Shown one piece after another: positions 425 through 55,680 of a DNA stretch of 64,000 bases. The notes beneath the pieces are model-generated. The model was given only the letters and a program-made list of their open reading frames with translations. It did not search any database and was not told where the DNA came from. The DNA is taken from positions 1 through 64,000 of IMG/VR virus record IMGVR_UViG_3300027815_000006. One strand, 5' to 3'. This stretch comes from a virus. Position 1 is the first letter of the stretch. Each line of letters begins with the position of its first letter. The position numbers and the translations under genes are program-made.

Positions 425-438
425 GGACCGTACGGTCC
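425..438. repeat. dispersed palindrome GGACCGTACGGTCC, copy 1 (intergenic; 18-bp perfect at 423-440)
   Basis: read directly from sequence. Confidence 0.97.
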
Positions 439-442
439 GAGG

Positions 443-1009
443 TCAGGCGACCTTCTTACCCGCGACGAACTTCGGGGCTCCGGCCTTCTTGGCGAACTTC
501 TTGGACTTCCCGGCCTTCTTGGAAGCCGCGGCCTTCGCTGCCTTCTTGGCCAGCCACGCGCGGTAGATCTTGTTGTACCACTTCTTGTAGCTCAGGGGGA
601 TCTTGACGATCTTCCCCTTGGTCGCGCCTGTGAGGTCGTCACACTTGCAGACGGTGAAGCCCCCCTTCTTCGAGCAGTCGCAGTCCCAGTGGTCGGTCTG
701 CTTGTTCTTGCCCTTCAGAGGGCCCGGACCGAGGTTGGACTTGCGCTTGAAGGGGTAGTGGGCCTTGGCCTCGGAGAGGAGACCGCCCAGGTCGGAGAGA
801 GGGAGGGGCACGCCGTGTTCCAGGTGCTCCACAACGCTACGGAGGGGATGCCACCCTCCGTGGAGCTGCATCTCAAGCTGGAGCTTCGGCCACGAGGCCG
901 CGCTGTAGGTCTGGGTGTTCGCCCCCTGGAGCGTCACCCGGTGTCTGCACAGGGCCGTGAGCGTGGCTGTCCCGAACGTTCCGCGTACCGCTTGTCCCTC
1001 GAACATCAC
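443..1009 (-). CDS. basic protein with Lys/Ala-rich histone-H1-like C-terminal tail, possible DNA-condensing or internal head protein
   Basis: C-terminus AKKAAKAAASKKAGKSKKFAKKAGAPKFVAGKKVA; WDCDC..CKC motif; AGGAGG SD; strong GC3. Confidence 0.7.
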   Translation of the reverse strand: MMFEGQAVRGTFGTATLTALCRHRVTLQGANTQTYSAASWPKLQLEMQLHGGWHPLRSVVEHLEHGVPLPLSDLGGLLSEAKAHYPFKRKSNLGPGPLKGKNKQTDHWDCDCSKKGGFTVCKCDDLTGATKGKIVKIPLSYKKWYNKIYRAWLAKKAAKAAASKKAGKSKKFAKKAGAPKFVAGKKVA

Positions 1010-1185
1010 GCGCCTCCTGGTGCGGCGTTGTCAAAGTCCCACTGAAGCACTCGGTAGAGTACCTCAACACTGGCCTCGTAGGTGGGATCCTTGCGACAAA
1101 GCTGCTGAAAGGTCTGCGCCGCCGTCCGACCCTGCACCACAAAAGGTACCCGCACGCCCTCGGACAGCCGGACACCTACAAGCAT
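1006..1185 (-). CDS. possible small hypothetical protein (MLVGVRLSEG...WDFDNAAPGGA)
   Basis: 3' end of ORF 1006..2076 looks protein-like; stop overlaps next start (GTGA). Confidence 0.35.
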   Translation of the reverse strand: MLVGVRLSEGVRVPFVVQGRTAAQTFQQLCRKDPTYEASVEVLYRVLQWDFDNAAPGGA

Positions 1186-1330
1186 CCCCGGGCGAATCGA
1201 CGCCAGAACCTTCCCAGCCCCGAAAAGAGCCTGAGCCCTAGCCCAGGATAGCTCCTCCGCGGGCCCCGTCGGATTACCGAGGCGCCCGCGGCGGAGGGCT
1301 GTGGTTTGGAGGACGAGGCGAGACACCTTC

Positions 1331-1344
1331 GGACCGTACGGTCC
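1331..1344. repeat. dispersed palindrome copy 2 (abuts stop codon of 1344..1694)
   Basis: read directly. Confidence 0.97.
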
Positions 1345-1694
1345 TAGAAGGTGCCCATGAGGCTGTCGGAGACGTCGGCCTGCGCCGCACCCGCGAAGGC
1401 CACGGTGACCTTCTTGGCCTGGATCATCTGCTGCCACTGGATCCTGACCGGCAGGGGGCTGTAGGGCGTCTTCGAGCGCAGGAGGTCGCCCGCGTGGATG
1501 GGCAGGGCCGCGCTCACCGCCGCCGCGGCCATCTCCGCGACGTGCTCGAAGGGGAAGGGCAGGGGGTTGTTCCTGGAGCCGCCCGTCGCCGTGATGCCCG
1601 CGATGGAGTCCACCACCGAGCTCGGCATCGTGGTGAGCTTCTGAACGTCGTTGAGCTTGCCGCCCGAGGTGTTCGTGATCTGCATGGTGGACAT
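1344..1694 (-). CDS. hypothetical protein, possibly virion structural
   Basis: GGAGG SD; very high GC3; N-terminus MQITNTS resembles that of 26801..27412. Confidence 0.7.
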   Translation of the reverse strand: MSTMQITNTSGGKLNDVQKLTTMPSSVVDSIAGITATGGSRNNPLPFPFEHVAEMAAAAVSAALPIHAGDLLRSKTPYSPLPVRIQWQQMIQAKKVTVAFAGAAQADVSDSLMGTF

Positions 1695-3880: not shown

Positions 3881-3894
3881 GGACCGTACGGTCC
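3881..3894. repeat. dispersed palindrome copy 3 (fills gap between convergent stops; 18-bp perfect)
   Basis: read directly. Confidence 0.97.
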
Positions 3895-3897
3895 GAC

Positions 3898-4305
3898 TCA
3901 CGTCCCGGCGAAGTACACCTGCACATACATCTCCACCGTCGCGCTCGGGTTCGAGACGTACACCGCGGTGATGGGGGAGGTGACGAGGAGGACAGCCTCG
4001 GACTGACTGCCGATGGGGCGTACGTCGATGGCGGTGTTCCCGGTGGCGTTGAGCTTCACGTTGAGGGGGGTGGGTGCGAGGGTGGGATCCACCGAGTAGA
4101 CGCGCATGAACATGAAGCGCGCGTTGCCTACCTGGGAAGGCTGAATGGCCACATCCGTCGCCAGCGGCGCGATCTTGATCTTGACGCTCCCGGCCTCGAT
4201 GAGGCTGTCGTCCAGGATCGCCGTACTGGCGTTGGCGATGTCCTTCTCCTCGTTGGTGCTGGACGAGATGGACACCTGCGTCGCGTACCTGACTCGAATG
4301 CCCAT
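3898..4305 (-). CDS. hypothetical beta-rich structural protein at end of tail-fibre operon
   Basis: ORF with GGGAG SD; position after fibre gene. Confidence 0.7.
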   Translation of the reverse strand: MGIRVRYATQVSISSSTNEEKDIANASTAILDDSLIEAGSVKIKIAPLATDVAIQPSQVGNARFMFMRVYSVDPTLAPTPLNVKLNATGNTAIDVRPIGSQSEAVLLVTSPITAVYVSNPSATVEMYVQVYFAGT

Positions 4306-4317: not shown

Positions 4318-6702
4318 TCAGCTCTGCTTCCCGAAGACCACGAAGAAGAAACTCTCCGCCACGGTAGCGAGGTCAACCTGCACCCCTGCCGCGTCCCACA
4401 CCTTCACGGAGAACCCCGTACCCGCGGAAATCGTCGCCGTCGCCATGCGCGCCGCAAGGTTGAGCGGGGTGATGAGCGGCGCGAAGTTGGCGTCCGCCAT
4501 TCCGTTCACGAAGGTCACGCTCACCGTACCTCCCCCCGCAACCGTGGCTGACGCGATGTTGAAGCCGTCTACGATGGTCACCGCGCCAGGGCCCGCGCCA
4601 GTAGACGCCAAACGCCCCCACGCCTTCGGTACGTTGGATGCGTAGAGCGTGTTGCCGAGCTGTCCCCCATCGACGGGCGTGGGATTGCTCACCGCCGTAA
4701 CCGCGTTGAAGGAGAGCGGAGCGTCCCGGGACTGAAGCGCGGAGTTCGCGCCGCGCAGGACGGTGAACATATCCACCCAGGCGGCCTCCGCCCAGGAAGC
4801 CCCTCCGGGCCCGTACTGCACCTTCATCCGGTCCAGGAGGAGAACGAACCGGAACGCCGCGACGCCCGCATTGTCCGGCACCCAGTTGGTCCCGTCCCAG
4901 CGTGCGTTGATAGTCGTCTCCGAGCCTCGGGCGCTCCCGGCCTCGGGCGCGACGTAGGACCGTACGGTCCCGTCCCCGGAGGCATCCACAGCGTGCGTGT
5001 GCCCCGTGCGCATCGCCGCCACGGCATCGAAGAGGAATCGAGGCGTAGCCGCGAGCGCGGCGCTGGCGGCGAGTGCGGGGTTGTACCCCACGGTGAGCGC
5101 CCCGGACACCGCCGCGGCCAGCTCCCCAACCTGAAGATCGAGCACGGACCACAGATTGTCCGCCCAGGTCCCGTTGGCCGCAGCATCGCGGCTGCGATAC
5201 TGAAGGTACCCCGGAGTGCCCGCCCCGAGCGCGAGCATGTACGCCGCCTCGCCGTTCACATCCTTGGTCCACTGCACCGAGGCGTCCGAGAAGGCGTTGA
5301 GCGTGACGCGCAGCTCTGCGTGCGCTGGGGAGTTGTCCGCGATGTAGTACACCCGGAGGTGCTGACGCCCGACGCCCACCGTCTCCAAGAGGAGCGTGGG
5401 GGTACCTACGGTGGTGCGGACGGAGGGAGCAAGTCGCGCGAAGTTCACCGCGTCGGCGGCGGAGGTCATCCCGCTTCCGGAGAGAAGTCGCCCCGTAGAA
5501 CGGAGCGATGCGAAGACGGTGCCCAGTCTGTCCAGAAGCTCCAGGACCGTCTCCCCGGCCTGGGTGGTAACCTGCGCCCTGGGGGAGGAGACCGCATCCG
5601 CCCCCGTCGCGTCCACGAAGTCGAGCTGGTGCGTGGCCAGAGGAGCGTCCCCCGAGGTCCCCAGGGGCTCGTCCACCTGGAAGCGCCGCAGTTGCAGAAG
5701 ACGAAGGGAGTTCACCACCAAGGCCAGCCCCGCCGCGCCGAAATCGAGGCCGGTGTACACCAGCGCGACCTTCCAGAGCCGCGCGGCTGTCGCGGGAGGC
5801 GCGAAGGCTCCCGTGAGGGTGCGCGTGGACGCATCGGGGGCAGTGAGGTCCACGGTGAGGGTGGAGGTAGCGCCCACGTCTACCCCCGCAGCGTCCTTCC
5901 AGTGCAGCCGCAGGATGAAGGTACCCGCGGTGGCAGCCTGGATCGCCTTGAGCTTGAGCTCGTAGACGATCTGGAGCGCCTGCGAGATCGGCGCCCCCAC
6001 GCGCTGCTCGACCAGTCCGGTGCTCGCCGCCGCGGCGCGGGTGAAGCCGAGGTACTGGGCCTGCCCGGTGAGGAGGTGCGCCCCTGTGGTCCCCGGCGCC
6101 ACCGCCATGTCCCCCGCGGACTGAGAGCGCGCCCAGAAACGGGAGGACTGCTCGAAGGTCGGGTTCTTCGTGAGGAGCCGGAGACCCTGGAGTCCTTCAG
6201 GGGCTCGTTCGGCGGGGTAGGTGCGCTGCGCGTAGGAGAGCTGCGCGCTCGTAATCACGCCGCCCACAGGCACCGTGATCGTCCCGAGGACCACCAAGTA
6301 GGGCTTGTCCGCCGAGGCGTCGTACTGCGCCTGGGTGTAGACCCGCAGCTCCGCCGTGGTCACCGCACCGACGGAGTAGGTGGCGTACAAACAGAGCACC
6401 ACCGTCGTCCCGTCGTAGGAGACGGGAATCACCAGGGTGGAGGTGGCGAGGCGCCGGATGGTGATGAGGTACCCGTTGGAGGTCTGGTAGAGCGCTGTGG
6501 ATGCCCCCTCGGACCCTACGGTCACGTCCACCGTGTAGGGCGCCGCGTTCGCCGCGAGGAGGAGCCCCTGGTAGACCCCCGGAGCGAGGATCCCCACGTC
6601 CCGGCGGTTCAGGGCCTCGGTGACGAAGGTCTCCTGGAAGTTGATCGCACGCTCGGCAGTGCCGTAGGTAGAGAGCGTGGTCGGTGTGGCGGGCGGGGGC
6701 AT
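4318..6702 (-). CDS. tail fibre / receptor-binding protein
   Basis: 794 aa, Ala/Gly/Thr-rich; two similar internal modules (T-x-NA...W..D..G.AA); follows collar/baseplate genes. Confidence 0.65.
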   Translation of the reverse strand: MPPPATPTTLSTYGTAERAINFQETFVTEALNRRDVGILAPGVYQGLLLAANAAPYTVDVTVGSEGASTALYQTSNGYLITIRRLATSTLVIPVSYDGTTVVLCLYATYSVGAVTTAELRVYTQAQYDASADKPYLVVLGTITVPVGGVITSAQLSYAQRTYPAERAPEGLQGLRLLTKNPTFEQSSRFWARSQSAGDMAVAPGTTGAHLLTGQAQYLGFTRAAAASTGLVEQRVGAPISQALQIVYELKLKAIQAATAGTFILRLHWKDAAGVDVGATSTLTVDLTAPDASTRTLTGAFAPPATAARLWKVALVYTGLDFGAAGLALVVNSLRLLQLRRFQVDEPLGTSGDAPLATHQLDFVDATGADAVSSPRAQVTTQAGETVLELLDRLGTVFASLRSTGRLLSGSGMTSAADAVNFARLAPSVRTTVGTPTLLLETVGVGRQHLRVYYIADNSPAHAELRVTLNAFSDASVQWTKDVNGEAAYMLALGAGTPGYLQYRSRDAAANGTWADNLWSVLDLQVGELAAAVSGALTVGYNPALAASAALAATPRFLFDAVAAMRTGHTHAVDASGDGTVRSYVAPEAGSARGSETTINARWDGTNWVPDNAGVAAFRFVLLLDRMKVQYGPGGASWAEAAWVDMFTVLRGANSALQSRDAPLSFNAVTAVSNPTPVDGGQLGNTLYASNVPKAWGRLASTGAGPGAVTIVDGFNIASATVAGGGTVSVTFVNGMADANFAPLITPLNLAARMATATISAGTGFSVKVWDAAGVQVDLATVAESFFFVVFGKQS
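4957..4970. repeat. dispersed palindrome copy 4 (in frame, GTVRS)
   Basis: read directly. Confidence 0.97.
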
Positions 6703-7299: not shown

Positions 7300-9681
7300 T
7301 CAGCTCACCACCTCTAGCAGAGCTTCCCACGCGGTGTCCGCGGGGAGAAGGTCACCGGGAACGTCATCATAGTAGGCCGTGAAGGGCGCGTACAGCACAG
7401 GGATCGCCGGACCCTCCAGATACGCCTCCAACCCCGCGGAATCCCCGAAAAATGCCTCGAAGGTAGCCTCCAGAAGCACCAGGAGCCGCACGTGGATCGG
7501 GATGACCTCCTGGATCCGACGCAGAAGCCGCGGGACACGCTCGCCGCTCCCCACGGCAAGCTCCCCCAGATGCAGCGTCAGAAGCACGACGGCTACGGGC
7601 GCGAAGTACGAGACGGGGTTCAGGGGCGCGGTGTAGGTCAGGGTGCCCATACCCGCCGCAGGAGCAGTTGCAGCCCAGACCTCGACGGTCCACTCCCGGG
7701 GAGGCACCGAGATCACCAGGAGCGGTACCGTCTCCAGCCAGTAGGTCACGCCCCCCTTCACGAAAGCCCACCCCCCAACACCGCCGACCATCGCGGGTGC
7801 GTTACCACGCAGGCGAAGCCGGTACCTTGAACCAGACAAAAGCGTGCTGGAAAGAAGCTCGGTCGCCACGGAGGCGACGTACGCCGTCTCCCAGGAATAG
7901 GTGTCGAGCGGGGTGCCTGTCTGCAAGAACCACTCGTCCGGCACCACGTCATCGAAACGAGGCGCTGTGGGCTGAAGATCCGTGAACACCTCGGTGACAG
8001 CCCAGTCCCCCGTGAAGGGCACCGTAGGGAGAGCCGCGCGCGTCAGCGCCAGAGATGTCCCGGAGAGAACCTGAAGCTCGTAGAGCCCGTTGGCTTCCGG
8101 AATCGTAGCATTGGACACCCGCAGGAGCTTCGTGCTGTCCGCCCCCTTGAACACCCCCGTGCTCGCCGTGAGGATGAGTCTCCCCGCGCCTGGAGAGAAG
8201 CTCCCCGTCCCCGTGCGACCTGTAGTCACCTCGCGGAACTCGTACCGCCGTGCACTCGGAATCTTCGGGTAGAAATCCGCGCCCACCCGGCACAGCCCGA
8301 GAACGGTGACAGGAAGCCCCGTGAGTGCCCCGATGGTGGCGTACGCCTCCGAGGTGCCCTTCCGGGCCCGCCAGCGACGCAGCCCGTCCGCCCAGCCCCG
8401 CTGATAGGACTCCGCCTCCGTCGGGTCGAAAGGAAGCGCCATGTCTTCCGTGAGGTGCTGGAGCATCGCAGGGGGTCGCACCCGGACACGCGCGTCCGCG
8501 CGCCCGAGAGATGGCGCAGTGCGCAGCTCCCAGAGACACCCCGCTTGGAGCGCCAGCGGGGGCTCCGAGGCGAACACCGTCACCTCCGCCGTGTTCAACC
8601 CGAACACCCGCGTCACCGTGACACTACGCCGCTCCGGTCCGCCCAGTACGGGATAGATCTCCAGGAGACGCCCCACGTCGGCGCTCGTAAGCTGCGCACC
8701 GGGGAGCGTCACCGTCGCCGTCGCCCCGCCGCTCACCGAGGCACCCGTACCCCGCGCCAGAACAACCCCCCGAGGCGAAAGACTCCCCTTCACGCGCACC
8801 CGCGCCCGAGGGCGCTTGGCCCAGTAGACCCCCGTGGCGTTCGCGGGCACGAAGGCCGTAAGCGTCGCGGGGTCCAGGAGCTCTGCCGTGGTCGCCGTGA
8901 GCGCCCCCAGGAGGTACACCCCCTGGACCGTACGGTCCGAAGTACGTACGAAGATGCCTCGCCCGCGGTCCTCCGGCGCGAAGCTCCCGGTGATGTTCAG
9001 GAGCCCCGCGGCAAACGAACCCGTCCCGTCCGCGGGCACAATTCCGTCCTGCTCCCCTGGGTAGAACAGGTCGTACCCGAGGACCTCGTACCCGTTCTCT
9101 CCGTCCTCCAGGAGCCATCCGGGCCGAAGCGCAGACACGTCCCCCTCGGCATCAATGAGGACGCCTTCCCCCTCGCGGCTCGCATAGAGTCCCCACGCCA
9201 CAGGTCCGGCTTCGGGCTGGAGAATCGGATCCGTCACCAGGGTGGTGCCCGACAACACCGCTACCACCCGAAGAAACCCGTGATTTCCTGGCAGAGCCGA
9301 CGTCAACCGCAGGAGACTCCCACGGTCCTTCGCATCGAAGCGTCCCGAGGGCGCTTGGAACGTCCCGAGAGCGATCACCGCCCCATCCGCACCTCTCTGC
9401 TTGAGCTCCCCCGCCTCTGGGGTCGGCTCCCCGAGGAGGAGATACCTGTTCTCCGCGTGGTTGCTTCGCGCCGTGAAGGGATCTCGGAGTGACTCGAAGG
9501 CGTCGATGCGCAGCCGCGTGTCTCGAAGCTCCTCCGCCGTCGCCGTGAGATAGCCGCGAAGTAGCCCGTCCGCGTCGGTGTCCAGGTAGGTCTGCGGGAT
9601 GGTGTTGTGGAGAAGATCCACCTCCGCGGGCCACTCCCCGAAGTGCCCGTCCCCGAAGCTGTAGTCCCCAAACCCAGGCAT
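7300..9681 (-). CDS. baseplate wedge / tail protein (gpI-like core with inserted domains)
   Basis: LLHNTIPQTYLDTD..LRGYL, RKGTSEAY, IQEVIPIHV motifs; baseplate context. Confidence 0.65.
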   Translation of the reverse strand: MPGFGDYSFGDGHFGEWPAEVDLLHNTIPQTYLDTDADGLLRGYLTATAEELRDTRLRIDAFESLRDPFTARSNHAENRYLLLGEPTPEAGELKQRGADGAVIALGTFQAPSGRFDAKDRGSLLRLTSALPGNHGFLRVVAVLSGTTLVTDPILQPEAGPVAWGLYASREGEGVLIDAEGDVSALRPGWLLEDGENGYEVLGYDLFYPGEQDGIVPADGTGSFAAGLLNITGSFAPEDRGRGIFVRTSDRTVQGVYLLGALTATTAELLDPATLTAFVPANATGVYWAKRPRARVRVKGSLSPRGVVLARGTGASVSGGATATVTLPGAQLTSADVGRLLEIYPVLGGPERRSVTVTRVFGLNTAEVTVFASEPPLALQAGCLWELRTAPSLGRADARVRVRPPAMLQHLTEDMALPFDPTEAESYQRGWADGLRRWRARKGTSEAYATIGALTGLPVTVLGLCRVGADFYPKIPSARRYEFREVTTGRTGTGSFSPGAGRLILTASTGVFKGADSTKLLRVSNATIPEANGLYELQVLSGTSLALTRAALPTVPFTGDWAVTEVFTDLQPTAPRFDDVVPDEWFLQTGTPLDTYSWETAYVASVATELLSSTLLSGSRYRLRLRGNAPAMVGGVGGWAFVKGGVTYWLETVPLLVISVPPREWTVEVWAATAPAAGMGTLTYTAPLNPVSYFAPVAVVLLTLHLGELAVGSGERVPRLLRRIQEVIPIHVRLLVLLEATFEAFFGDSAGLEAYLEGPAIPVLYAPFTAYYDDVPGDLLPADTAWEALLEVVS
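8925..8938. repeat. dispersed palindrome copy 5 (in frame, SDRTVQ)
   Basis: read directly. Confidence 0.97.
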
Positions 9682-11736: not shown

Positions 11737-12466
11737 GGGGGACCTCCGATGTTCGGTCGATCCGCACCCGCGCAAGGCGATGCGTGTGCAGGAAATCGTA
11801 GACGATGCGGTAGGGCAGTCCTTCAGCCCCCTGGAAAAAAGCCTGTGTCGGAAGATTTCGCAGGAGAAGAACCCACCACTCCGCGTGGCGTCGCGCGCTC
11901 CAGGTCATGCGGTAGTAGGGCCACCCGAGGAACTGCGCCCGAAAGAACTCCCTGGAGCTCGCCACGGGTTCCAGAGAGCCGGACAGCCAGTAGAGCATCG
12001 CCGCACTCATGGCGTACCCCCGGCGCTCCCAGCGCGCCCGAAACGGCGCGGGGAGGGGGAGAAGGAACAGGAGCGCGAGGAGGGACAGGAGAAACTCCAG
12101 CCGCCAGAAGGCCAGGACCGCGAGGAGCGCCCCCAGCGCGAGCACCTGCGGAAACACATACCCAAGGGAGAAGAGGACCCCCACGCGCTTTCGGTCCGCG
12201 ATGTGAACCGCCTCGTGCGCGAGGATCTCCAGCAGCGTCTGCGCCGGAGTCTGCGCCCGCCATGCCGGGGAGGGAAGATAGACCCGCGACCCGAGCGTGG
12301 TGATGTAGCTGTCCATGAAGCCCCTGTTGAAGAACAGGAACGTGCCCAGCACACGCATCCCCCAGGACTCGGACTTGTACCGGAGCTCCATCGGGATGCC
12401 GTGAGCGCGCAGATACGCCACGAAGGCGTTGATCGTGGTGGTGGTGATGGGGGCCTGGAGCGACAT
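11729..12466 (-). CDS. membrane protein with HExxH zincin motif
   Basis: ITTLG..Y, LAHEAVHIAD, hydrophobic hairpin, WERRGY third-ligand motif. Confidence 0.7.
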   Translation of the reverse strand: MSLQAPITTTTINAFVAYLRAHGIPMELRYKSESWGMRVLGTFLFFNRGFMDSYITTLGSRVYLPSPAWRAQTPAQTLLEILAHEAVHIADRKRVGVLFSLGYVFPQVLALGALLAVLAFWRLEFLLSLLALLFLLPLPAPFRARWERRGYAMSAAMLYWLSGSLEPVASSREFFRAQFLGWPYYRMTWSARRHAEWWVLLLRNLPTQAFFQGAEGLPYRIVYDFLHTHRLARVRIDRTSEVPRA

Positions 12467-12972
12467 TACGGAAACACCGTAACACGCGGAAGGACCCGTA
12501 GCAGCGAAGGACGCACCAGGACGTACCGCTCCCCCGTCGGAAGCTGCGCCCAGAAGTCGTAGACGTAATCCCCCTCTGGGAGCTTCTCCGTGTCCGCGGG
12601 CAAGAGCGTCACCTTCGCCACCCCCAGCCTCGGATTCGAGGAAGGATAGGTGATGCCCGGAGAAACCCCGTCGGTGGTCTTCAGCACCAGGACCGTACGG
12701 TCCGACACGTCCCCCTTGACGCTGAACACCAGCCTGGAGCCCGTAAGATCGAAGATCTTCCCAGCCTCGTCCGTCACGGTGACGGTGTAGGTCTGTGTAG
12801 CCCCGCGTACTACCTCGATCCCATTGCGCGCTTGTAGCAGGTTGGTGGTGCTCATGGGCCCCTCGATGCGCGCCAGGAGATGAAACGCGGGCTGGACTGC
12901 CCCCTGAAGCCCCTCACCGGCCTGCGCCACCACGATGAGGTCCGCGGAGGATACGACGGCATCAAGCAACAT
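12466..12972 (-). CDS. BppU-like baseplate/Ig-fold protein (alternative start 12855)
   Basis: RGATQTYTVTVTD..FDLTG..FSVK..LLPADT..YVYD pattern. Confidence 0.65.
   Translation of the reverse strand: MLLDAVVSSADLIVVAQAGEGLQGAVQPAFHLLARIEGPMSTTNLLQARNGIEVVRGATQTYTVTVTDEAGKIFDLTGSRLVFSVKGDVSDRTVLVLKTTDGVSPGITYPSSNPRLGVAKVTLLPADTEKLPEGDYVYDFWAQLPTGERYVLVRPSLLRVLPRVTVFP
12690..12703. repeat. dispersed palindrome copy 6 (in frame, SDRTVL)
   Basis: read directly. Confidence 0.97.
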
Positions 12973-41714: not shown

Positions 41715-41728
41715 GGACCGTACGGTCC
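41715..41728. repeat. dispersed palindrome copy 13 (between convergent genes; 20-bp perfect 41712-41731)
   Basis: read directly. Confidence 0.97.
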
Positions 41729-41736: not shown

Positions 41737-42189
41737 CTACAGGGTGCCCTTGAGCCACGCCTGGAGCCCGTCCCGGACAGCCTTGTAGGCTTCCTCGGGC
41801 GTCTTCCCCTCGGTGCCCACCTTGAAGTCCCGGAGCTGCGTCGCATTGGTGACCCCAGTGGGGCTGCGCTCCATGGTGCTTCCGTCCACGCGGCCATCGA
41901 TGAGCCACAGCTCCGCGTACCCGAAACCCTCCGGGTCCGGCTTCGAGCCCGAGTAGTCCGCAGGCCGCTCCCCCCACCGGATGTAAAACTGCCGCCGGAA
42001 GGACTGCTTCCCGGTCCCCCTGGAGGTCATCTTCACCGCCGTGGGCTTCGGGTTCAGCTCCTTCTTGAGGCGCGGAAGGAGTTTGGCCAGTGCGCCGTTG
42101 AACTCGTCCGCAGAGCCGGGGGCCGCTTCCTCCCACAGATGACGCCCGGAACACGCCCCGGCACAGTCAGAGTTCCAACACGCACGCAA
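41737..42189 (-). CDS. hypothetical protein (start uncertain)
   Basis: C-terminal part of ORF 41737..42498 is protein-like; its N-terminal part overlaps the LAGLIDADG gene. Confidence 0.5.
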   Translation of the reverse strand: MRACWNSDCAGACSGRHLWEEAAPGSADEFNGALAKLLPRLKKELNPKPTAVKMTSRGTGKQSFRRQFYIRWGERPADYSGSKPDPEGFGYAELWLIDGRVDGSTMERSPTGVTNATQLRDFKVGTEGKTPEEAYKAVRDGLQAWLKGTL

Positions 42190-43474: not shown

Positions 43475-43499
43475 GCCACACAGCATAGCAGGTGCGACT

Positions 43500-47945: not shown

Positions 47946-47959
47946 GGACCGTACGGTCC
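47946..47959. repeat. dispersed palindrome copy 14 (intergenic, downstream of portal)
   Basis: read directly. Confidence 0.97.
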
Positions 47960-47996: not shown

Positions 47997-49772
47997 TCAC
48001 GCGGGGGGCCTCGCCCGCAGATCATGGAGGAGGCTGCGAAGATGCTCCATCCGCGCCAGGAGCGCGGCATCCCCCCGAAGGAGCTTCTCCAGCTTGGCCT
48101 CCGCCCGGCGCTCCGCGTCTCGGCTGCCCTGGAGGAGCTCCCGCTCCGTGATGCGGCGAGGGACAGGCCGCAGACGCCCGGCAAAAGAACGCCTGGGAGC
48201 ACTCTCCTGGGACGCACCCCCCTTCGGAGGCTCATCAATCCCCTCGGGGCCCGGCACGAAGTCCGTCGGCGCCTCCTGCGGAGGCCCCTCATCCTCGTCC
48301 CCACCTCCACCCCCCGGGGGCCCCGCACCCCCCTCCCGCTGGAGGTCATCCCCCCTCTCGGTGAAGATCGTCTTGATCTCTTGATCCGTGAGGTTGAAGA
48401 TGTGCGAGAGGACCCACCGCATCGAGACGTGCTCTCGCATCCTGGTTGCGAGATCCGCTCTGGCGTTGCGGACCTCTAGCTGCGCGAGCTCGAAGATCGC
48501 GCTGGGCGCCGTCAACGAGACACTAAAATCCACCGAGTAGGGATCAATCCCCAGGGCGGCGAAGTGCACCTGCGCGAGCTGCTTCAGCACACGCGCCTCC
48601 TCCCGTTGCACACGAAGAATGACACGGGCGAAACGCACGTCCTGCGAGGAAAGCGTTGCGCGCACAACCCCCGTCTCATCTCCCATGTACGCCCGCGGAA
48701 CCTTCGCGGCAGCATAGAAAAGTGTACGGAAGTAGTCGGCGTCGTCCACCGACTGCCATACCGGGGAGGCGAGGGTCTCCACTCTCGTTTCATCCCCGTT
48801 ACGGATCGGGATGAACACGTCCTCGTCCTGTGCGACCGGATCGAACTTCAACCCCAGACGCCCGGAGGAATCCACATAGCGCCGTTTACGAACCTGCTGC
48901 CGGAAACGGTTGACGTAGGCCCATGCCTCCTGGTCGGTCTTGTTCCCGACGTTCAGGTAGTAGGCGTACCGCTCCGGCGCCCTGTCCAGACGGAAACGTA
49001 GAACCGCATCGTCCATGAGGAGCATCCTGCGCCAGACCCACCGGGCGGGCTCCAGGAACGGAGAGCCATACAGAGAGTACGGGTTGCGCCCCATGAGGCG
49101 CGCATGGATCACCTGCCACGGCTCGAAGGGGATGGGTCCCTCGGATCCCAACAGCTCCCGTCCGCGGGCAACAGCCTGCTTCCGACGCGCCGCGTCACGC
49201 TCGTACTTCTGTACGATCTCCTTGAACTCGTTTTCGGAAAATCCCCTCCCCCCGGAGAGGTCCTGCACGAAGCCCAGAAGATCCCCCCTTGAGTCCTCTA
49301 CCCGACGCATGGACGCCGGAGGAAGCTGGTTCACACGAACCACCCCCACCTTGTCCGCGAGGATGGGTTCCGCATAGCCGTTGCCGTACTTGATTAGGGA
49401 ACGAACGTCCCCCCAGAGGCGGTCCTCGACGGCGAGATCCTTGTAGAGATCCTCCACGATCTTCTGGTATTTGCGCGTCTTGGCCGTCACCGTGAGGACG
49501 CGCCCTGTCTGCCAGTCGGTCTGTGTGGTGTCGTCCGCCACGATGTCGAGGACCGCCGCCGCGAGGGGGTACTCATCCATGCACTCGGCGTCCCCGAAGA
49601 TGGAGAGGAAGTCCCGCTCCATGCGCAGGTAGGACGCCACAGCGTCCGGCATGACGGAGTAGGAGGCGTCGGGCCCCACAACCCCCACCGGAACCCCGCG
49701 GGTGGTGTCCTCCCCTGCGCCCCCGTCCAGCGCATCGGTCACCGTCCGTACGAGATCGTCCAAAACGCCCAT
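47997..49772 (-). CDS. portal protein (T4 gp20-like)
   Basis: MDEYP..LDIVADD, YG.PFLEPAR..W, D.VL.FRL.RAPER..YY.NVG, EDVFIP, DADYF..L..A.KVP, DVRFARVI.RVQ. Confidence 0.95.
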   Translation of the reverse strand: MGVLDDLVRTVTDALDGGAGEDTTRGVPVGVVGPDASYSVMPDAVASYLRMERDFLSIFGDAECMDEYPLAAAVLDIVADDTTQTDWQTGRVLTVTAKTRKYQKIVEDLYKDLAVEDRLWGDVRSLIKYGNGYAEPILADKVGVVRVNQLPPASMRRVEDSRGDLLGFVQDLSGGRGFSENEFKEIVQKYERDAARRKQAVARGRELLGSEGPIPFEPWQVIHARLMGRNPYSLYGSPFLEPARWVWRRMLLMDDAVLRFRLDRAPERYAYYLNVGNKTDQEAWAYVNRFRQQVRKRRYVDSSGRLGLKFDPVAQDEDVFIPIRNGDETRVETLASPVWQSVDDADYFRTLFYAAAKVPRAYMGDETGVVRATLSSQDVRFARVILRVQREEARVLKQLAQVHFAALGIDPYSVDFSVSLTAPSAIFELAQLEVRNARADLATRMREHVSMRWVLSHIFNLTDQEIKTIFTERGDDLQREGGAGPPGGGGGDEDEGPPQEAPTDFVPGPEGIDEPPKGGASQESAPRRSFAGRLRPVPRRITERELLQGSRDAERRAEAKLEKLLRGDAALLARMEHLRSLLHDLRARPPA

Positions 49773-51815
49773 CTAGCGGCCTCGCGGATACGATCCGTCC
49801 GTCACCCAGGCGGAGTCAAGCTCATCCACGCCGCCGACCATGATCGGAGGAAGCGCCGCGCCCCCGCGGGAAAGATACCCCTGCGCATCGATGTCCAACG
49901 GAATGTCTCCTCCGGGTGTGATGATCGGGAGCGGCTCCTGCTGGAGCCCGAAAGCCTCGGTGAGGGTGTGTACCACCCCCGCCAGGGCGTCCGCAACGTC
50001 CTTCCGGAACCCCTTGGGGTGGTCCACCTTCCCCGTGCGCCCATCTCGCTCCAGCCGCCGGAGCTCCTCGATGAGAGGCGCGTAGTTGTAGAAGAAGATG
50101 CGGTTCTCGTAGAGCGCCGTCTTGAGCGTGTCGTACGGGTCCGCCGTGCGATCCACGGAGAGAATCTCCGCGTCGTAGCCCTTCGCGCGGAGTTGCTGCA
50201 AACCATCCCGACTCTGGTAGGTATCTGACGTAACCTTCGTAATTCTGAAGCCCTTGCTCGACATGAGATATAGAAGACGACGCACGTCCCCCATGACGAT
50301 CTCGTCCCCGAGGGGAGGGACGATCTGGAGGAGGAAGTCCACGATGATGACGGGGGCCCGCTCCAGAACACGCGCCTGCTCCACCTTCGAGGACCGAAGG
50401 ACGTTGCGGTACCCAGCAACGTGTGCAACCACAAGCCCCGTGGCGTCCCCCGTAAGCGAGGGATCAATGTGAGCGTGGCGAGGACGCTGGGGATTGATGC
50501 GCGGGACGGAGACGGTCTCGGTCCCGTAGGTATCCCGGCGCTCCACGTCGCGCACGAGAAGCTCCCAGAGGAAGTCCCCGCGCTGTGTCGGATCGTAGGA
50601 CTCCACAGAGAACGGATGCTTCAGCTTCGGGTGGATGGCCTGCTCGATGGCGCTCCGGCGCTGAATGTACGGGCTCATGGCCACCGTGGAGATCCCCGCG
50701 ATGTCCCGGATGGCCTGCTCCAGGTCTTGCTCGAAATCCCGGCGATAGTCCTCCGGTACGTCAATCATCACCACGTCGGCGGGGAGCTCCGCCCGGATGG
50801 CATCCCGCTCCCCAGGCTTGAGAATCCTGGAGGGGATCTGCTCGTTGCCCACGAGAACCTGGAAGGTCTCGTCCGAGGAGTACCTGGACTTCGGAACCGT
50901 CTCCCAAATCGCGTAGTCTCGCACGAACAGGTGAGGATCCTCCCTGGAGGTGCGAACCAGCTTCTCCGTGAAATCCGCACGGGTGCGCTTGGAGGAGACG
51001 ATGAACAAGATGCCAGGGAGCTTCCCCTGCCGCGCGAAGCGCGACTTCAACCGGCGCTTGAGCGTGTAGTAGATGGACTCCGCGCGCCCCACAACGCCGT
51101 GACGCTTTTGGTCCTTGGATGCATCGGGCATGAAGTTGCCTTCGTCCATGAAGGCCGAGATGCAGTTCAGGCCGAGCGCCGATGTGTCCGTAGAAGCACG
51201 CGCCGCCACCCACACGGAGCGCGGAAAGCGAAGCTCCTTCTTCGTCGCCGTGAACGGAAAGTGCTCCTTGAAGTACGGGCTGGCCTGGATCTTCGTGACG
51301 ATGTTCTCGAAGACCACCTTCACGGCCAGGGCCTCAGACACGGAAAGACACACCACGGAGATGTTGGTCCCCGGCGCCAGCCCGTAGGACTTGTGCGGGT
51401 CTTTCAGGCACGAGATCTCGTAGAGAACACGGCAAACGCCTACGCTCGCGGCAAAGCTCTTGCCGCTCCCGATGGAGCCTGTGAAGAGACACTCTGTGTA
51501 ATCTCCCTCAAATAGCTCCTTGAGATCCGCCAGCCAAACGTCATAGAGAGCGTCGCACGTCTCCCCGAGGTAGTAGGGATCGCGGACGAACGTCTCCATG
51601 TCTACAGGGGTACGGGCGTACTCCATCCGCGATGCCCGCGCGAAGAGAAGATCCTCTGTAGGATCCCCCTCCTCGTTGGCAGCCATCTCTGCGAGCATCT
51701 GCCGCAGAGCCTCCTGCTCTGCGGGGGTCATGCCCTTCATGTCCTGGAGAAGAAGACTCAGCTCCTCATCGTAGGTACGAACAGAGCGCGCCTTCCCGGA
51801 GTTCTCAACGATCAC
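49773..51815 (-). CDS. terL: terminase large subunit
   Basis: Walker A GSIGSGKS, Walker B AFMDE, VSS coupling motif, nuclease HIDPS..D and DHP..KDVADA. Confidence 0.93.
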   Translation of the reverse strand: MIVENSGKARSVRTYDEELSLLLQDMKGMTPAEQEALRQMLAEMAANEEGDPTEDLLFARASRMEYARTPVDMETFVRDPYYLGETCDALYDVWLADLKELFEGDYTECLFTGSIGSGKSFAASVGVCRVLYEISCLKDPHKSYGLAPGTNISVVCLSVSEALAVKVVFENIVTKIQASPYFKEHFPFTATKKELRFPRSVWVAARASTDTSALGLNCISAFMDEGNFMPDASKDQKRHGVVGRAESIYYTLKRRLKSRFARQGKLPGILFIVSSKRTRADFTEKLVRTSREDPHLFVRDYAIWETVPKSRYSSDETFQVLVGNEQIPSRILKPGERDAIRAELPADVVMIDVPEDYRRDFEQDLEQAIRDIAGISTVAMSPYIQRRSAIEQAIHPKLKHPFSVESYDPTQRGDFLWELLVRDVERRDTYGTETVSVPRINPQRPRHAHIDPSLTGDATGLVVAHVAGYRNVLRSSKVEQARVLERAPVIIVDFLLQIVPPLGDEIVMGDVRRLLYLMSSKGFRITKVTSDTYQSRDGLQQLRAKGYDAEILSVDRTADPYDTLKTALYENRIFFYNYAPLIEELRRLERDGRTGKVDHPKGFRKDVADALAGVVHTLTEAFGLQQEPLPIITPGGDIPLDIDAQGYLSRGGAALPPIMVGGVDELDSAWVTDGSYPRGR

Positions 51816-52575
51816 CCGAGCCCCCCACAGCCTTTGTAGGAGACTCCGTGGGGGAGTCTCCCGTGGGGAGCTGGGTCTGGAGCTTCGCCGCGAAGTCCGC
51901 GCGGGTGCGCTGGAGGGTCAAGAGGCGCTCCGCGATCTGAATGACTTTCCGCCGCGCCTCCGGGGCGTCCATCACCTGCTGCACTTCCGGAGAGCCGAAG
52001 GTCTGCCCGCTGTCCGACTCCGCATCCTGCGCCGGATCATGGACGCCCTGGCGCTGGTAGATCCCCATGGACAGCTTGAGCTCCACCGACCGGGCGAGGA
52101 TCTCCGCGGTGGTCACGATCTCCCGGTTCATCTGGGGCGAGAGAATCTGGAGCTTCTGCTCGTAGGCCAGCCCGATACGGAGGCGGTCCTGCTGCTTGCG
52201 GTAGAGCGCTTCGAGCTCCTGGAGCTCATCGAGGCGCTGAATCACCTCGGCCTTGACCGCCATCTGGGGGAGCCGCCCCCTGGCGGCGGCGAACTCCCAC
52301 CGCGGGATGCCCTGCTTGTACTCCTTGAGTACCTCCCGGACGACGTATTTGTTGACGTCCTCCGCCCCGCGGACATTGGTCTGCACGAAGGTGCACACGT
52401 CATCCAGGGAGCGCCCCTCGACGAACAGCCGCCGAACCTCCTCCACCTGCACCGAAGCCAGGAGAGTAGACCGGAACCGAAGGTGCGCCTGGGGGCGCGC
52501 GGCTACAGGCTGCGGCGCCTGCTTGCTCTGCGCGGCCTTCACCCGTCCGGTCGGTGTCTGGGGATCGCGGGACAC
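51805..52575 (-). CDS. putative terminase small subunit
   Basis: HTH-like N-terminus plus helical region directly upstream of terL; GTG 52575 is 6 nt after TGC-TATGGT. Confidence 0.6.
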   Translation of the reverse strand: MSRDPQTPTGRVKAAQSKQAPQPVAARPQAHLRFRSTLLASVQVEEVRRLFVEGRSLDDVCTFVQTNVRGAEDVNKYVVREVLKEYKQGIPRWEFAAARGRLPQMAVKAEVIQRLDELQELEALYRKQQDRLRIGLAYEQKLQILSPQMNREIVTTAEILARSVELKLSMGIYQRQGVHDPAQDAESDSGQTFGSPEVQQVMDAPEARRKVIQIAERLLTLQRTRADFAAKLQTQLPTGDSPTESPTKAVGGSGDR

Positions 52576-53386: not shown

Positions 53387-53388
53387 CC

Positions 53389-53402
53389 GGACCGTACGGT
53401 CC
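53389..53402. repeat. dispersed palindrome copy 15 (between polymerase stop and amidase)
   Basis: read directly. Confidence 0.97.
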
Positions 53403-53416
53403 AGTCCGAAGGAAGC

Positions 53417-55252
53417 CTACTTCTCCGCCCAGGAGTCTCCAACAGCAGCGGGGGCCCGCACAGGCACCGAAGGCAAGAGCGGCTGCATCCCCTCCACCAT
53501 GGCCTGTGACAGCGCCTTGGACCACTCTCGCAGAAGCTCAGGCTCCTCCGGGCACTCCGTAGCGATCTCGTCATGGACGTGGTGAACCATCCGCACCCCA
53601 GGGAACTTCCTGGCGGCCTCGTAGACACGCCGGAGCGCTCGCTTCAGCCCATCGGCAGCGGTCCCCTGCACCTCCAGGTTGAAGCACGCCGCGTACTCCT
53701 TCTCGGGGTCAATGAACCGCCGCCGCCCCGACAGGGTACGCAGCGCGCCGTCTCGCTCCGCCTTGGCGATCACCTTCCTGTGCCACGTCCGCACCCCAGG
53801 GAAGGACTCGAAGTAGGTATCGCGGATCCTCTCGGCGTCCTTCAGCGAGAACACAACACCGTACCCTACCAGCGCGTAGGACACGAACTTCTCCGCACCC
53901 AAAGCGAAAGCAAACCCGAAATTTGCTGGTTTGGCCTGCTGGCGCTGCTCCTTCGTGACCTCGCTCTCGGGCACCCCGGAGATCTTCGATGCGGTGAAGC
54001 GGTGAATGTCCCCGTCGCTGCGGATGATTTGCAGAAGATTTCGGTCCTGCGTGACCTCCGCGAGCACCACCATCTCAATCGCAGAGTAGTCCGCGATGAC
54101 GAGTTTCCTCCCAGCCTCAGGACGGAAACACGCCCGGTAGTTCTTGCCCCTCGGGATCTGTCCCAGGTTGGGCTTGGAGTGTGCGAAACGCCCGGTCGCC
54201 AGCATCGGATAGTAGGATGCGTGAATGCGGAGCGTAGCGGGATTCAGGAACTTCAGGTAGTCCGGCCCGAAGGCCGTGGTGGCCTTGGCATACCCGTTGT
54301 ACTCGATGACGTCCTTGATGATAGGATCCTTCTGCGCGAACACCGCGAGTGTAGCCTCCTTGGTGTCCTCAATAGGGATCCACGCATCACGGCCTACGCG
54401 GGTCTTGAGCCCGTACTTCCGGAGGCTCTGCAAGAGCTGCGTACGCGAGTCAATCGAGAACTTCGGATCGTAGCCGAACAGCCCTAGCTGATTGGAGGGG
54501 CTTGGAAGGACACGCTCCAGCTTCTCCCGCAGCTGCGTGGCCTTCTGCTTGTTCGTCTCGTAGAGCGTCAGCCACGCCTCGGCGTCCAGACGGAAGCCGT
54601 TGCGCTCCACGCTCGCCTCCGGGGTGATGGACTCGAACTCAAGGAGTGCGGTCTTGTGGAGCCCCTCCTCCCGGATCTTCGGCCTGAGCTTCTCGTACAC
54701 TTTCGGAAGCCAGATCACGTCGTCCGCGGCGTAGTCTAGCTGCTCCCTGGTGAGGTCAGACCGGGACCAATCGGAGCCGCCTAGCTCCTCCACCTGCGGC
54801 GCCATCTTGAGCTCCCGCAGATAGATCGAGAACAGGTCGTGGCTCATACCCCGCTCGCCCCCGAGCCCGTTGTAGAGCATCGCGGAGGCGCGGAAGGTAT
54901 CGAAGATCGGCCAGAGCTCCACCCCGTAGTGGTGCAGGAGGAACAGGGCATCGAACTTGAGGTTCTGCCCCACCACGATAGGGCGCCCCTCCCCCACACA
55001 CATCCCAGGGTTGTTGAGCACCTCCATGATCGGCGCCAACGTGCCCGTCTTGAAGGCGTCCACCACGTAGACATTCCGCCCCGTGTTCAGGGACAGGAGC
55101 CGAACGCGGCAGGTGTGGGGGTCAAACCCCGTCGTCTCCGTGTCCAGCGCGAGGAGCTGCGCCCCTCGGACCTCCTGGGCGATGAACGGAAGCTCCCCCG
55201 CGTCCGTGACGTACTGGTAGGTGTACCCGGCGTGTGTGAGCTTCTCCGCCAC
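53417..55252 (-). CDS. polA: family A DNA polymerase (3'-5' exonuclease + polymerase, no 5'-3' exonuclease)
   Basis: LDTET, NLKFD, YAADD, TGR..PNLGQIP, DYSAIE, R..AK..NFG, QGTAAD, VHDE. Confidence 0.95.
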   Translation of the reverse strand: MAEKLTHAGYTYQYVTDAGELPFIAQEVRGAQLLALDTETTGFDPHTCRVRLLSLNTGRNVYVVDAFKTGTLAPIMEVLNNPGMCVGEGRPIVVGQNLKFDALFLLHHYGVELWPIFDTFRASAMLYNGLGGERGMSHDLFSIYLRELKMAPQVEELGGSDWSRSDLTREQLDYAADDVIWLPKVYEKLRPKIREEGLHKTALLEFESITPEASVERNGFRLDAEAWLTLYETNKQKATQLREKLERVLPSPSNQLGLFGYDPKFSIDSRTQLLQSLRKYGLKTRVGRDAWIPIEDTKEATLAVFAQKDPIIKDVIEYNGYAKATTAFGPDYLKFLNPATLRIHASYYPMLATGRFAHSKPNLGQIPRGKNYRACFRPEAGRKLVIADYSAIEMVVLAEVTQDRNLLQIIRSDGDIHRFTASKISGVPESEVTKEQRQQAKPANFGFAFALGAEKFVSYALVGYGVVFSLKDAERIRDTYFESFPGVRTWHRKVIAKAERDGALRTLSGRRRFIDPEKEYAACFNLEVQGTAADGLKRALRRVYEAARKFPGVRMVHHVHDEIATECPEEPELLREWSKALSQAMVEGMQPLLPSVPVRAPAAVGDSWAEK

Positions 55253-55290
55253 GCTCGAATCCTACAGCCCCCGCCGCCCCCCGCAAGCCG

Positions 55291-55680
55291 TCAGAGAAGA
55301 GACTGGACCGTACGGTCCAGTGCGGGCCGAAGGGCATCCCTGAGTACGGTCACCAGCTCCTCATCATCTTCGGCCATTTCCTGCCAGAAGAGGAGCCACG
55401 GATGATCCTCCACCTCGCGCTCCATGAGCGCGTGCGTCGCCGGAACGAACAGGAAGTCCTCTCCCCCGCCCCTGGGATGCACCACATGGCGGTCATGCCC
55501 GAGGTCCTCGTAGCGTCCGATGGCCCCGAACCCGTCGTAGAACGTGTTGGCGTAGAGACGAAGCTGCACCTCGTCATCCTCCCCACCCCCCATGGGGGGC
55601 ACGAACACGTCCCGGAGCATACAGAAGGCCGTCGCTCCCCCAGGAAGCCGCGCGTAATAGGGTGTCTCGGGCGTCAGCAT
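55291..55680 (-). CDS. hypothetical protein
   Basis: 129-aa ORF coupled to giant gene. Confidence 0.7.
   Translation of the reverse strand: MLTPETPYYARLPGGATAFCMLRDVFVPPMGGGEDDEVQLRLYANTFYDGFGAIGRYEDLGHDRHVVHPRGGGEDFLFVPATHALMEREVEDHPWLLFWQEMAEDDEELVTVLRDALRPALDRTVQSLL
55305..55318. repeat. dispersed palindrome copy 16 (in frame LDRTVQ; 20-bp perfect 55302-55321)
   Basis: read directly. Confidence 0.97.

Follow-up and report, generated by a model that had tools for sequence, protein, structure and literature searches.

The closest published counterparts of the array described here are the KorB-OB system of plasmid RK2, which carries about a dozen 13-bp OB sites, and the repeats of Cluster O mycobacteriophages. 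On this IncP plasmid, the short OB palindrome is dispersed at kilobase intervals, with some copies far from promoters, and KorB, a ParB-family protein, loads at OB and then slides, a role for which ParA is not required (PMC11790492). In Cluster O, the 17-bp repeat TGTTCGGNNNCCGAACA, its arms constant and its centre variable, is found genome-wide over 30 times; the copies are intergenic, at gene starts and intragenic, follow no orientation rule and are unexplained in function, and the predicted DNA binders of these phages include a ParB-like protein (PMC4351075). TGTTCGGNNNCCGAACA has a 7-3-7 layout and belongs to a Mycobacterium siphovirus, whereas the phage analysed here carries a 6-2-6 palindrome of unrelated sequence; the phenomenon is of the same kind in another family, and no BLAST-level relation was seen between Cluster O and the ParB-like family of this phage.

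In ParB-parS systems and in the phage-plasmid N15, with its four dispersed Sop centromere sites, a ParB-family protein likewise recognises a palindrome; these systems, however, possess few sites, include a ParA and serve to segregate plasmids. The stoperators of L5 and the conserved inverted repeats of phiC31 are repressor sites, present in large numbers in short intergenic gaps of the phage genome; both phages are temperate with known repressors, their sites are not intragenic at even spacing, and L5 stoperators are asymmetric and oriented with transcription. The palindrome analysed here, GGACCGTACGGTCC, is unlike a stoperator in its perfect symmetry, and no sign of lysogeny was seen in 107 kb of this T4-like phage. 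Noc of Bacillus subtilis tethers DNA to the membrane and thereby blocks cell division, and its NBS sites are unevenly spaced and avoid the terminus. Like the phage site, NBS is a 14-bp palindrome scattered on a chromosome, and its reader Noc is a ParB paralogue that works without ParA (PDB 7ol9, 7nfu); unlike NBS, the phage sites are evenly spaced, and nothing in the phage indicates membrane tethering or a division block.

No paper was found that explains such evenly spaced palindrome arrays; palindromes and terminases both go unmentioned in a 2025 survey of the ParB-CTPase fold (PMC12704722). The initial annotation called the system a candidate undescribed one, which holds only in part, since the Cluster O array is published (PMC4351075) and KorB-OB and Noc-NBS are known dispersed site sets of the ParB family.

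The palindrome array of an uncultured T4-like phage

The window, positions 1-64,000 of the IMG/VR record IMGVR_UViG_3300027815_000006 from an uncultured T4-like phage, has a GC content of 0.667 (initially put at about 68%) and holds 16 exact copies of GGACCGTACGGTCC plus a one-mismatch copy, GGACCATACGGTCC, at 41129. All 16 positions first reported carry an exact match, the 41129 copy is likewise in place, and the claimed excess over chance holds: dinucleotide-preserving shuffles of the window (n=100) averaged 0.02 matches with at most one mismatch, and 0/100 reached 17. GGACCGTACGGTCC is a perfect 14-bp palindrome of 6-2-6 layout (two six-base arms about a central pyrimidine-purine step). A recount of its flanks in the window reproduced the earlier figures (15/16 copies have a pyrimidine at -2 and 14/16 at -1, while 13/16 have a purine at +1 and 16/16 at +2), and beyond +/-2 bp there is no flank conservation. 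The copies are listed below without strand; G001 is a relative with a capsid protein 58% identical; its quasi-palindrome, also 6-2-6 and spaced alike, has another sequence.

425-438, exact: 4 nt past the stop of minus-strand gene 443-1006
1331-1344, exact: overlaps the stop codon of minus-strand gene 1344-1694
3881-3894, exact: 3 nt past the stop of 3898-4305 (minus), at a convergent junction with a plus-strand gene ending at 3657
4957-4970, exact: within the tail-fibre-like gene 4318-6702 (minus), translated TVRS
8925-8938, exact: within gene 7300-9681 (minus), translated DRTV
12690-12703, exact: within gene 12466-12972 (minus), translated DRTV, gap-free alignment to the G001 orthologue
16962-16975, exact: within the tail gene 16489-17868 (minus), SDRTVR against DDSTVR in G001
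22991-23004, exact: ahead of the tape-measure gene, whose start codon (22980) follows after 10 nt that include the Shine-Dalgarno sequence
25345-25358, exact: in the 290-bp gap between 24758-25204 (minus) and 25495-26169 (minus)
31700-31713, exact: within gene 31541-32335 (minus), which has a G001 orthologue, translated TVRS
34819-34832, exact: in the poorly coding stretch 34223-35289
38535-38548, exact: intergenic, 30 nt past the stop of 38579-39274 (minus) and 50 nt before the start of 38182-38484 (minus)
41129-41142, GGACCATACGGTCC, one mismatch (central transition): in the gap between plus-strand genes 40424-41098 and 41189-41680
41715-41728, exact: at the convergent junction of 41189-41680 (plus) and 41737-42036 (minus)
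47946-47959, exact: 37 nt past the stop of the T4-like portal gene 47997-49772 (minus)
53389-53402, exact: 14 nt past the stop of the DNA polymerase A gene 53417-55252 (minus)
55305-55318, exact: between the stop of a giant gene (55682) and the start of the polymerase gene (55252)

The whole 92,388-bp record contains 23 exact copies. Four more come from a 14.4-kb IMG/VR contig of a different sample, which overlaps the record end (99% over 133 bp), so that the motif is present in two independent assemblies. The joined 106.6 kb holds 27 exact copies and three one-mismatch copies, all three with central transitions, while variants with two mismatches (2 seen against 1.75 expected) and three mismatches (15 against 12.9) stay at a Markov-3 background. 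Among the bacterial matches listed (one genome per species), only scattered single copies occur, and the abundance of the motif is therefore not a host-wide oligonucleotide bias.

Measured gaps in the window run from 906 to 6355 bp, in keeping with the 0.9-6.4 kb first given. Copies occur about once per 4 kb and are more evenly spaced than chance (CV 0.61, P=0.004); the corresponding CV is 0.52 in G001 and 0.41-0.60 in six cultured phage genomes, and close pairs of copies are absent from all of these genomes. Non-coding DNA makes up 6.4%, yet it holds 10/23 copies (P=6e-7). About one third of the copies are intragenic and align without gaps to orthologues, which indicates an origin by substitution rather than insertion; the alignment of SDRTVR at the 16962 copy with DDSTVR in G001 likewise places its making in substitution. 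Two intergenic positions recur with the motif of G001 itself, one at the equivalent tape-measure start (138831; compare 22991) and one 13 nt past the stop of the DNA polymerase A orthologue (111303; compare 53389). The even spacing, intergenic enrichment and gap-free intragenic copies show an array selected for coverage of the phage chromosome. Evenly spaced, lineage-specific palindromes forced into coding sequence imply a strong DNA-level function over that whole chromosome.

The copies are almost identical and their sequence has switched across whole lineages, much as under copy-and-spread; the shared module encodes RecA-like, exonuclease-like and RuvC-type proteins, and Cluster O repeats flank deletions (PMC4351075). 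This might suit recombination hot spots or cut sites, for instance of an endonuclease initiating recombination-dependent replication, or a palindromic element that spreads by itself. We regard this explanation as quite improbable: the intragenic copies are not insertions, the copies show neither target duplications nor conserved flanks, even spacing without close pairs is unexpected from random spread, and no site-specific nuclease candidate was found adjoining the copies.

Site type and arrays in related phages

Placement near gene ends might instead point to RNA, with the copies acting as hairpins for termination, as processing marks or as elements tuning translation of the next gene. Many copies begin 0-40 nt past a stop codon, with the Shine-Dalgarno sequence of the following gene right behind them; two are placed at convergent junctions, and the core of this phage folds at -7.1 kcal/mol (-11.3 with flanks). 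Such a role does not fit the intragenic third of the copies and needs no constancy of all 14 positions, including the would-be loop; versions with the half-site TGCAAT, found in cultured phages, fold at only -2.5 kcal/mol, and the 15 nt downstream of copies hold 3.0 T against 2.5 expected, without the T-run of an intrinsic terminator. In G001 nearly all genes lie on one strand, and among its 27 copies of GAGYCAYRTGRCTC the pairs at symmetric positions (C-G 9, T-A 5, T.G 7, C.A 7) match independence; C.A is as frequent as T.G, so that the compensatory stem changes of REP/RAYT-type hairpins were not found. The commonest G001 form would have a C.A mismatch in its stem, and the loop appears in both orientations, the asymmetric centre (CA/TG) dividing 12:14 on the sense strand, unlike L5 stoperators. 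Independent symmetric positions and both orientations on the sense strand favour a duplex-DNA site over an RNA hairpin, and we consider an RNA role very improbable. On these sequence patterns, we interpret GGACCGTACGGTCC as a site that a symmetric phage protein would bind in duplex DNA.

The initial annotation had raised lineage-specific palindromes in related phages, and these exist not only as GAGYCAYRTGRCTC in G001 but as similar evenly spaced arrays in six cultured phages: DLP5 (Stenotrophomonas), RcTiptonus and RcZahn (Rhodobacter), VH2_2019 (Vibrio), JP1 (Agrobacterium) and RHph_TM16 (Rhizobium). The same arrangement in cultured, tractable phages opens the question to direct bench tests. 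The half-site TGCAAT recurs in phages of Stenotrophomonas, Rhodobacter and Vibrio, hosts unrelated to one another, which points to a phage-encoded rather than a host reader; of the phage- or host-encoded binder first proposed, the former is thus favoured.

All six cultured array phages encode a ParB-like protein, a small protein (X) and the large terminase in a row. Arrays were found in 10/20 lineages fetched by homology to the ParB-like protein against 0/18 control loci (P=5e-4), and, among complete cultured genomes, in 6/6 with the ParB-like/X/terminase triad against 0/3 with the protein outside it, an association that is not phylogenetically independent because array phages share a replication and packaging module. 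No array was found in 10-61 kb of several genomes that carry the ParB-like gene, among them the syntenic relative L062 as well as L069, L070, L083, L096, L098 and the Arthrobacter phages. With its N6-YR-N6' motif, even spacing, PHROG 26387 protein, X and related large terminase, this phage falls within the class defined in this analysis as 6-2-6 tiling palindromes of ParB-like/X/terminase triad phages. The centre of the site is a fixed asymmetric step (CA/TG) in both G001 and DLP5, which is odd for a plain homodimer.

Candidate readers of the palindrome

Three genes bear on what might read the array.

66336-67184 of the record, just outside the window: ParB/KorB/Noc-like gene, PHROG 26387
51805-52542, minus strand: gene X, whose small helical product combines an HTH-like N-terminus with a long coiled coil; the gene lies immediately upstream of that for the large terminase
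49773-51731, minus strand: large terminase, 33-36% identical to the terminases of DLP5, RcTiptonus and VH2_2019

The ParB-like protein matches Pfam ParB_N (PF02195) at 1.4e-8, above the curated cut-off, and its AlphaFold model (pLDDT 80.7) is closest in fold to KorB (8qa9_B; Z 14.1, rmsd 2.0 over 123 residues), followed closely by Noc (Z 13.8) and ParB; Noc is also among its top sequence matches. Neither the ParB HTH (HTH_ParB) nor the C-terminal domain gave a Pfam match. Alignment of the model to Noc and ParB extends to residue ~212 with rmsd 6-10 Å, and residues 147-175, which align with the ParB helix-turn-helix, are acidic, are not conserved among seven TGCAAT phages and do not track the motif sequence. 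The predicted CTP box is GGEYRWRAA here, SGEWRCKAA in G001 and mostly GGEHRW in the family, against GERRxRA. The gene precedes X and the large terminase within the packaging module of related phages and lies 14 kb from both in this phage. No ParA ATPase gene was seen among about 50 proteins scanned (genome about 60-70% complete).

We give about an even chance to the GGACCGTACGGTCC copies being loading sites for this ParB/KorB/Noc-like protein, judging from sequence and predicted fold. GGACCGTACGGTCC would be this lineage's form of a 6-2-6 palindrome tiling the whole phage chromosome; each palindrome might serve as a loading point for dimers, which, like ParB-family clamps, would spread or slide over a few kilobases. 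With a site every 2-5 kb, the whole genome would come within the protein's reach, possibly to mark phage DNA for packaging, control transcription globally or shield the DNA. KorB-OB is alike in its short palindrome dispersed at kilobase intervals and in KorB being the best structural match (Z 14.1). It differs in that 30-50 sites tile the whole phage genome against about a dozen on RK2, the HTH of KorB can be recognised and its box is GERR, whereas the phage protein shows no recognisable HTH and has the box GEYR, and a KorA-like partner belongs to the KorB system while none is known for the phage. If the ParB-like protein is the reader, it would represent a new viral use of a chromosome-segregation clamp. 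A dimeric protein on a dispersed palindrome, as initially proposed, is the best-supported reading (G001 positions, even spacing, substitution, shared TGCAAT, ParB-like gene), though its binder is still a candidate.

A more elaborate scheme is tentative and, in our estimate, unlikely. A partner-less, nucleotide-dependent ParB-like clamp from the packaging module would load at the tiling palindromes (every 2-5 kb). It would then either pass the phage DNA on to the terminase, so that packaging would be specific with no need for one pac or cos site, or coat the genome against host silencing or defence. Such self-marking would be widespread in phages, with site and reader co-evolving from TGCAAT-type to GGACCG-type in moves to high-GC hosts.

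Another phage protein might read the sites, either X at many packaging-recognition sites or a fast-evolving HTH regulator at a global operator set like L5 stoperators and phiC31 repeats; we judge this doubtful, though worth weighing. X is one family in this phage, G001, L066, L098, L067, L107, DLP5 and RcTiptonus, always adjoins the terminase and, in most array phages, is conserved at that place to the same degree as the ParB-like protein is in the genome. It has no Pfam, PDB or fold match; its modelled small N-terminal helical (HTH-like) domain and long coiled coil resemble small terminases, so that X is probably the small terminase and a second candidate reader. Small terminases are ring oligomers and are not known to read short exact palindromes. 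RcTiptonus packages by a P1-type headful mechanism (PMC8601537), which would suit packaging sites, yet VH2_2019 and L073 have a different, classic-HTH protein at X's position with the same kind of array, and the putative recognition helix of X is not conserved among TGCAAT phages. For operators, many intergenic copies do lie just upstream of a ribosome-binding site, but no promoter elements are conserved at a fixed distance from copies, and copies also occur at convergent junctions and deep within genes.

Site-specific modification of the palindrome, such as methylation or glycosylation, deserves very little credence, although an N6/N4 methyltransferase gene lies at record 78835-79794 (8.8e-41) and glycosyltransferase genes precede the ParB-like gene in cultured relatives. 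Known methyltransferase sites are far shorter than 14 bp, and a modification target needs no even spacing. DNA of DLP3 resists 15 restriction enzymes (PMC7326821), but resistance to 15 unrelated enzymes indicates a general base modification, not one at palindromes.

The ParB-like protein stays the favoured candidate reader. The MerR-like protein was not detected in two of DLP5, RcTiptonus and VH2_2019, and the genes that this phage shares with all three encode, apart from the ParB-like protein, enzymes of replication or packaging.

The palindrome array of phage G000

The uncultured phage G000 is related to T4-type myoviruses and has a high GC content. Its structural genes encode a Gp23-family capsid protein, a prohead protease, a T4-like portal, a tail sheath, a baseplate wedge and a tape measure of 1597 residues, and its replication genes encode a family A DNA polymerase, a RecA-like protein, a primase, a DnaB-like helicase and an SF2 helicase with an intein. 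Nearly all of these genes lie on the minus strand. Searches by DNA and by tape-measure protein return no cultured relative, and the capsid protein is less than 30% identical to that of any cultured phage. A protein identical to its ParB/KorB/Noc-like protein (hereafter ParB-like) is encoded on a 156-kb contig. The family A polymerase (window 53417-55252) occurs alongside T4-type capsid, portal and prohead protease genes; the T4 polymerase, unlike that of G000, belongs to family B. In the SF2 helicase gene (record 71994-74363, or 11994-14363 of the record segment L049), the intein comprises Hint and LAGLIDADG homing endonuclease domains, and a gene (window 42167-43486) adjoining the capsid gene has a weak LAGLIDADG-like match.

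The initial annotation placed 16 exact copies of a 14-bp palindrome and one single-mismatch copy in the window, and every one is found at its position. A recount confirms its flank figures (YY before, RR after), and its GC estimate of about 68% is close to the measured 0.667. The claimed enrichment also stands, with 17 matches observed against 0.02 expected in dinucleotide-preserving shuffles of the window. The whole 92,388-bp IMG/VR record, with an estimated completeness of 59%, contains 23 exact copies. The palindrome also occurs on 44 other viral contigs. On 43 of them it is a single chance copy; the last, 14.4 kb long and from a different sample, carries five. Because this contig overlaps the end of the record at 99% identity, it is a continuation of the same phage, contributing four further copies for 27 in the joined 106.6 kb. 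Three more copies in the joined sequence each differ by a single transition within the central four bases, while 2- and 3-mismatch copies occur at the Markov-3 background level. Recovery in two independent assemblies, together with this sharp mismatch cut-off, argues against an artefact. A host-wide bias or a prophage array was rejected after a scan of bacterial genome contigs, which gave only single scattered copies among the matches listed.

The copies are dispersed, as initially described, and lie more regularly along the record than chance would place them (CV 0.61, P = 0.004), with a minimum distance of 822 bp (P = 0.0015). Non-coding DNA, 6.4% of the record by gene calls, holds 10 of the 23 record copies (P = 6e-7). 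These typically lie 0-40 nt 3' of a stop codon, directly before the next ribosome-binding site, and two copies sit at convergent gene junctions. About eight copies fall within well-supported genes, where they are read in each of the three frames, as DRTV, TVRS or GPYGP. Where an orthologue exists, in-gene copies align with it without gaps, as in SDRTVR of G000 and DDSTVR of the related 148-kb contig G001, so these copies were written by substitution; the same alignments rule out a mobile 14-bp insertion. One copy lies within the first codons of the ParB-like gene. The largest gap in the array, from 55305 to 67152, corresponds to a giant gene of 2915 residues with no copy inside, and the G001 orthologue likewise spans the widest gap in the array there (97576 to 111303). 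The lower GC of the giant gene may reflect later acquisition.

Genes of G000 discussed in relation to the array
Large terminase gene: window 49773-51731
Gene for X, the small protein encoded upstream of the large terminase: window 51805-52542
Giant gene: window 55682-64000, ending at record 64429; GC 0.648 vs 0.670 for the rest
ParB-like gene, encoding a ParB N-domain protein: record 66336-67184

The 14.4-kb continuation (L037) also contains a second repeat at 4176-4211, 7911-7960 and 8292-8327, composed of inverted arms AAATGTCACA and TGTGACATTT with about 16 nt between them. The occurrences at 7911 and 8292 start about 25 nt past a palindrome copy, which at 8292 is a one-mismatch copy.

Comparable arrays in other phages

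G001 shares 42 syntenic genes with G000 and a capsid protein of 58% identity. The G000 palindrome is absent from this contig, which instead has GAGYCAYRTGRCTC 27 times, on average 5.5 kb apart (CV 0.52, P = 0.0004). Some sites are equivalent in the two genomes: each has a copy immediately before the tape-measure gene and another immediately past the polymerase gene.

A survey covered contigs that encode ParB-like homologues and represent about 20 distinct lineages. Ten of these lineages bear their own dispersed 14-bp motif, whereas 18 control loci totalling 218 kb contain no such array (P = 5e-4). The shared architecture is six bases, a pyrimidine-purine step and six bases, with the half-sites TGCAAT, TGCAGA, TGCCTA and CGCAAG. 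Spacing is over-even relative to chance in all six cultured array phages, and the preferred centre (CG, CA/TG or TA) is genome-specific.

Arrays in cultured phages
Stenotrophomonas DLP5: 35 sites, spacing CV 0.47
Rhodobacter RcTiptonus: 48 sites, spacing CV 0.48
Vibrio VH2_2019: 34 sites, spacing CV 0.41
Agrobacterium JP1: 37 sites, spacing CV 0.49
Rhodobacter RcZahn: 22 sites, spacing CV 0.60
Rhizobium RHph_TM16: 14-23 sites, spacing CV 0.48

All six share the gene order ParB-like, small protein X, large terminase, and G000 encodes this full triad, with X and the terminase inside the window. No array was found in three genomes with a ParB-like gene outside the triad: RHEph10, DanielleIgnace and KellEzio, the last covered in part.

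Two of the cultured arrays show asymmetries. In RcTiptonus (L139, MW677527.1), 12 sites of the variant TACAATCGATTGCA have the -10-like half TACAAT on the left, as read on the + strand, and 3 have it on the right. This skew in an otherwise symmetric motif suggests a second role, as promoter elements, for some of the sites. In DLP5 (W01, NC_042082.1), the asymmetric centre on the + strand is CA at 23 sites and TG at 11, which may be a mild orientation bias; no such bias is seen in G001 (12:14).

Searches of the literature for the motif sequence and for the concept found a single precedent. In Cluster O mycobacteriophages a 17-bp palindrome occurs 34 times, placed in the same pattern as the G000 array (PMC4351075). 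The authors suggested a dimeric binder, with a ParB-like protein among their three candidates, and doubted a transcriptional role (PMC4351075). DLP5 is reported to persist as a phagemid (PMC5834331). The arrays are not mentioned in the DLP5 abstract (PMC5834331) or in the DLP3 (PMC7326821) and Rhodobacter phage (PMC8601537) papers, and neither palindromes nor terminases come up in a survey of the ParB-CTPase fold from 2025 (PMC12704722).

Duplex DNA or RNA as the recognized form

Very probably, the palindromes are protein sites on duplex DNA, forming an array that is under selection and covers the genome. The alternative, that they function as hairpins in RNA, can be tested with the motif variants of G001 because 189 of its 194 genes share one strand. 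At symmetric Y/R positions, the counts (C-G 9, T-A 5, T.G 7, C.A 7) indicate independence rather than base pairing. Of the 27 copies, 26 have CA or TG at the centre, in a 12:14 ratio when read along the sense strand. Independent positions and both centre orientations disfavour an RNA hairpin and are compatible with two duplex-DNA half-sites. The G000 palindrome itself would fold at -7.1 kcal/mol, but AT-richer (TGCAAT-type) versions would reach only -2.5. No T-run follows the copies on their 3' side, and with the weak folding of the AT-richer versions this led us to reject a terminator. A promoter or activator site was likewise set aside, as conservation in the ±70 bp around the copies ends at ±2 bp.

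Candidate readers of the sites

Phages of Stenotrophomonas, Rhodobacter and Vibrio have the half-site TGCAAT in common, which suggests that the reader travels with the phage. By tblastn, seven G000 genes are detectable in DLP5, RcTiptonus and VH2_2019: those for the terminase, polymerase, RecA-like protein, two helicases, primase and ParB-like protein. The ParB-like protein is the sole one of these that is not a replication or packaging enzyme. Its predicted model (pLDDT 80.7) most resembles KorB (Z 14.1, rmsd 2.0 Å over 123 residues), Noc (Z 13.8) and ParB. Several observations count against it as the reader: Pfam detects no ParB HTH domain, the helix aligned with the ParB recognition helix varies among seven TGCAAT phages, the CTP box is GEYR rather than GERR, and several genomes with the gene show no array. 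These include the syntenic locus L062, where a de novo repeat search gave protein-repeat families only. We consider the chances even that the ParB-like protein loads at the palindromes and spreads.

A MerR-like protein (record 71117-71809) was rejected as the reader on the basis of its non-detection in two of the three cultured phages, DLP5 and RcTiptonus. Protein X is all-helical, begins like an HTH and contains a long coiled coil; it is probably the small terminase, and has no significant match in Pfam, PDB sequences or Foldseek. A different protein occupies its place in VH2_2019 and in the array-bearing L073. A search for helices of the ParB-like protein or of X that covary with the half-site revealed no clear recognition helix.

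Marking DNA for packaging would be an attractive purpose for the array because the ParB-like gene sits in the packaging module. The best-studied analogue, KorB, acts in long-range transcription control (PMC11790492). A glycosyltransferase gene often precedes the ParB-like gene in cultured array phages, lying at most two genes upstream in the cultured loci L137, L139, L140, L275, L277 and L279, and DLP5 and VH2_2019 have additional sugar-modifying genes nearby. Since DLP3 DNA is reported to resist 15 restriction enzymes (PMC7326821), these neighbours raise the possibility that DNA hypermodification may be linked to the ParB-like/terminase module.
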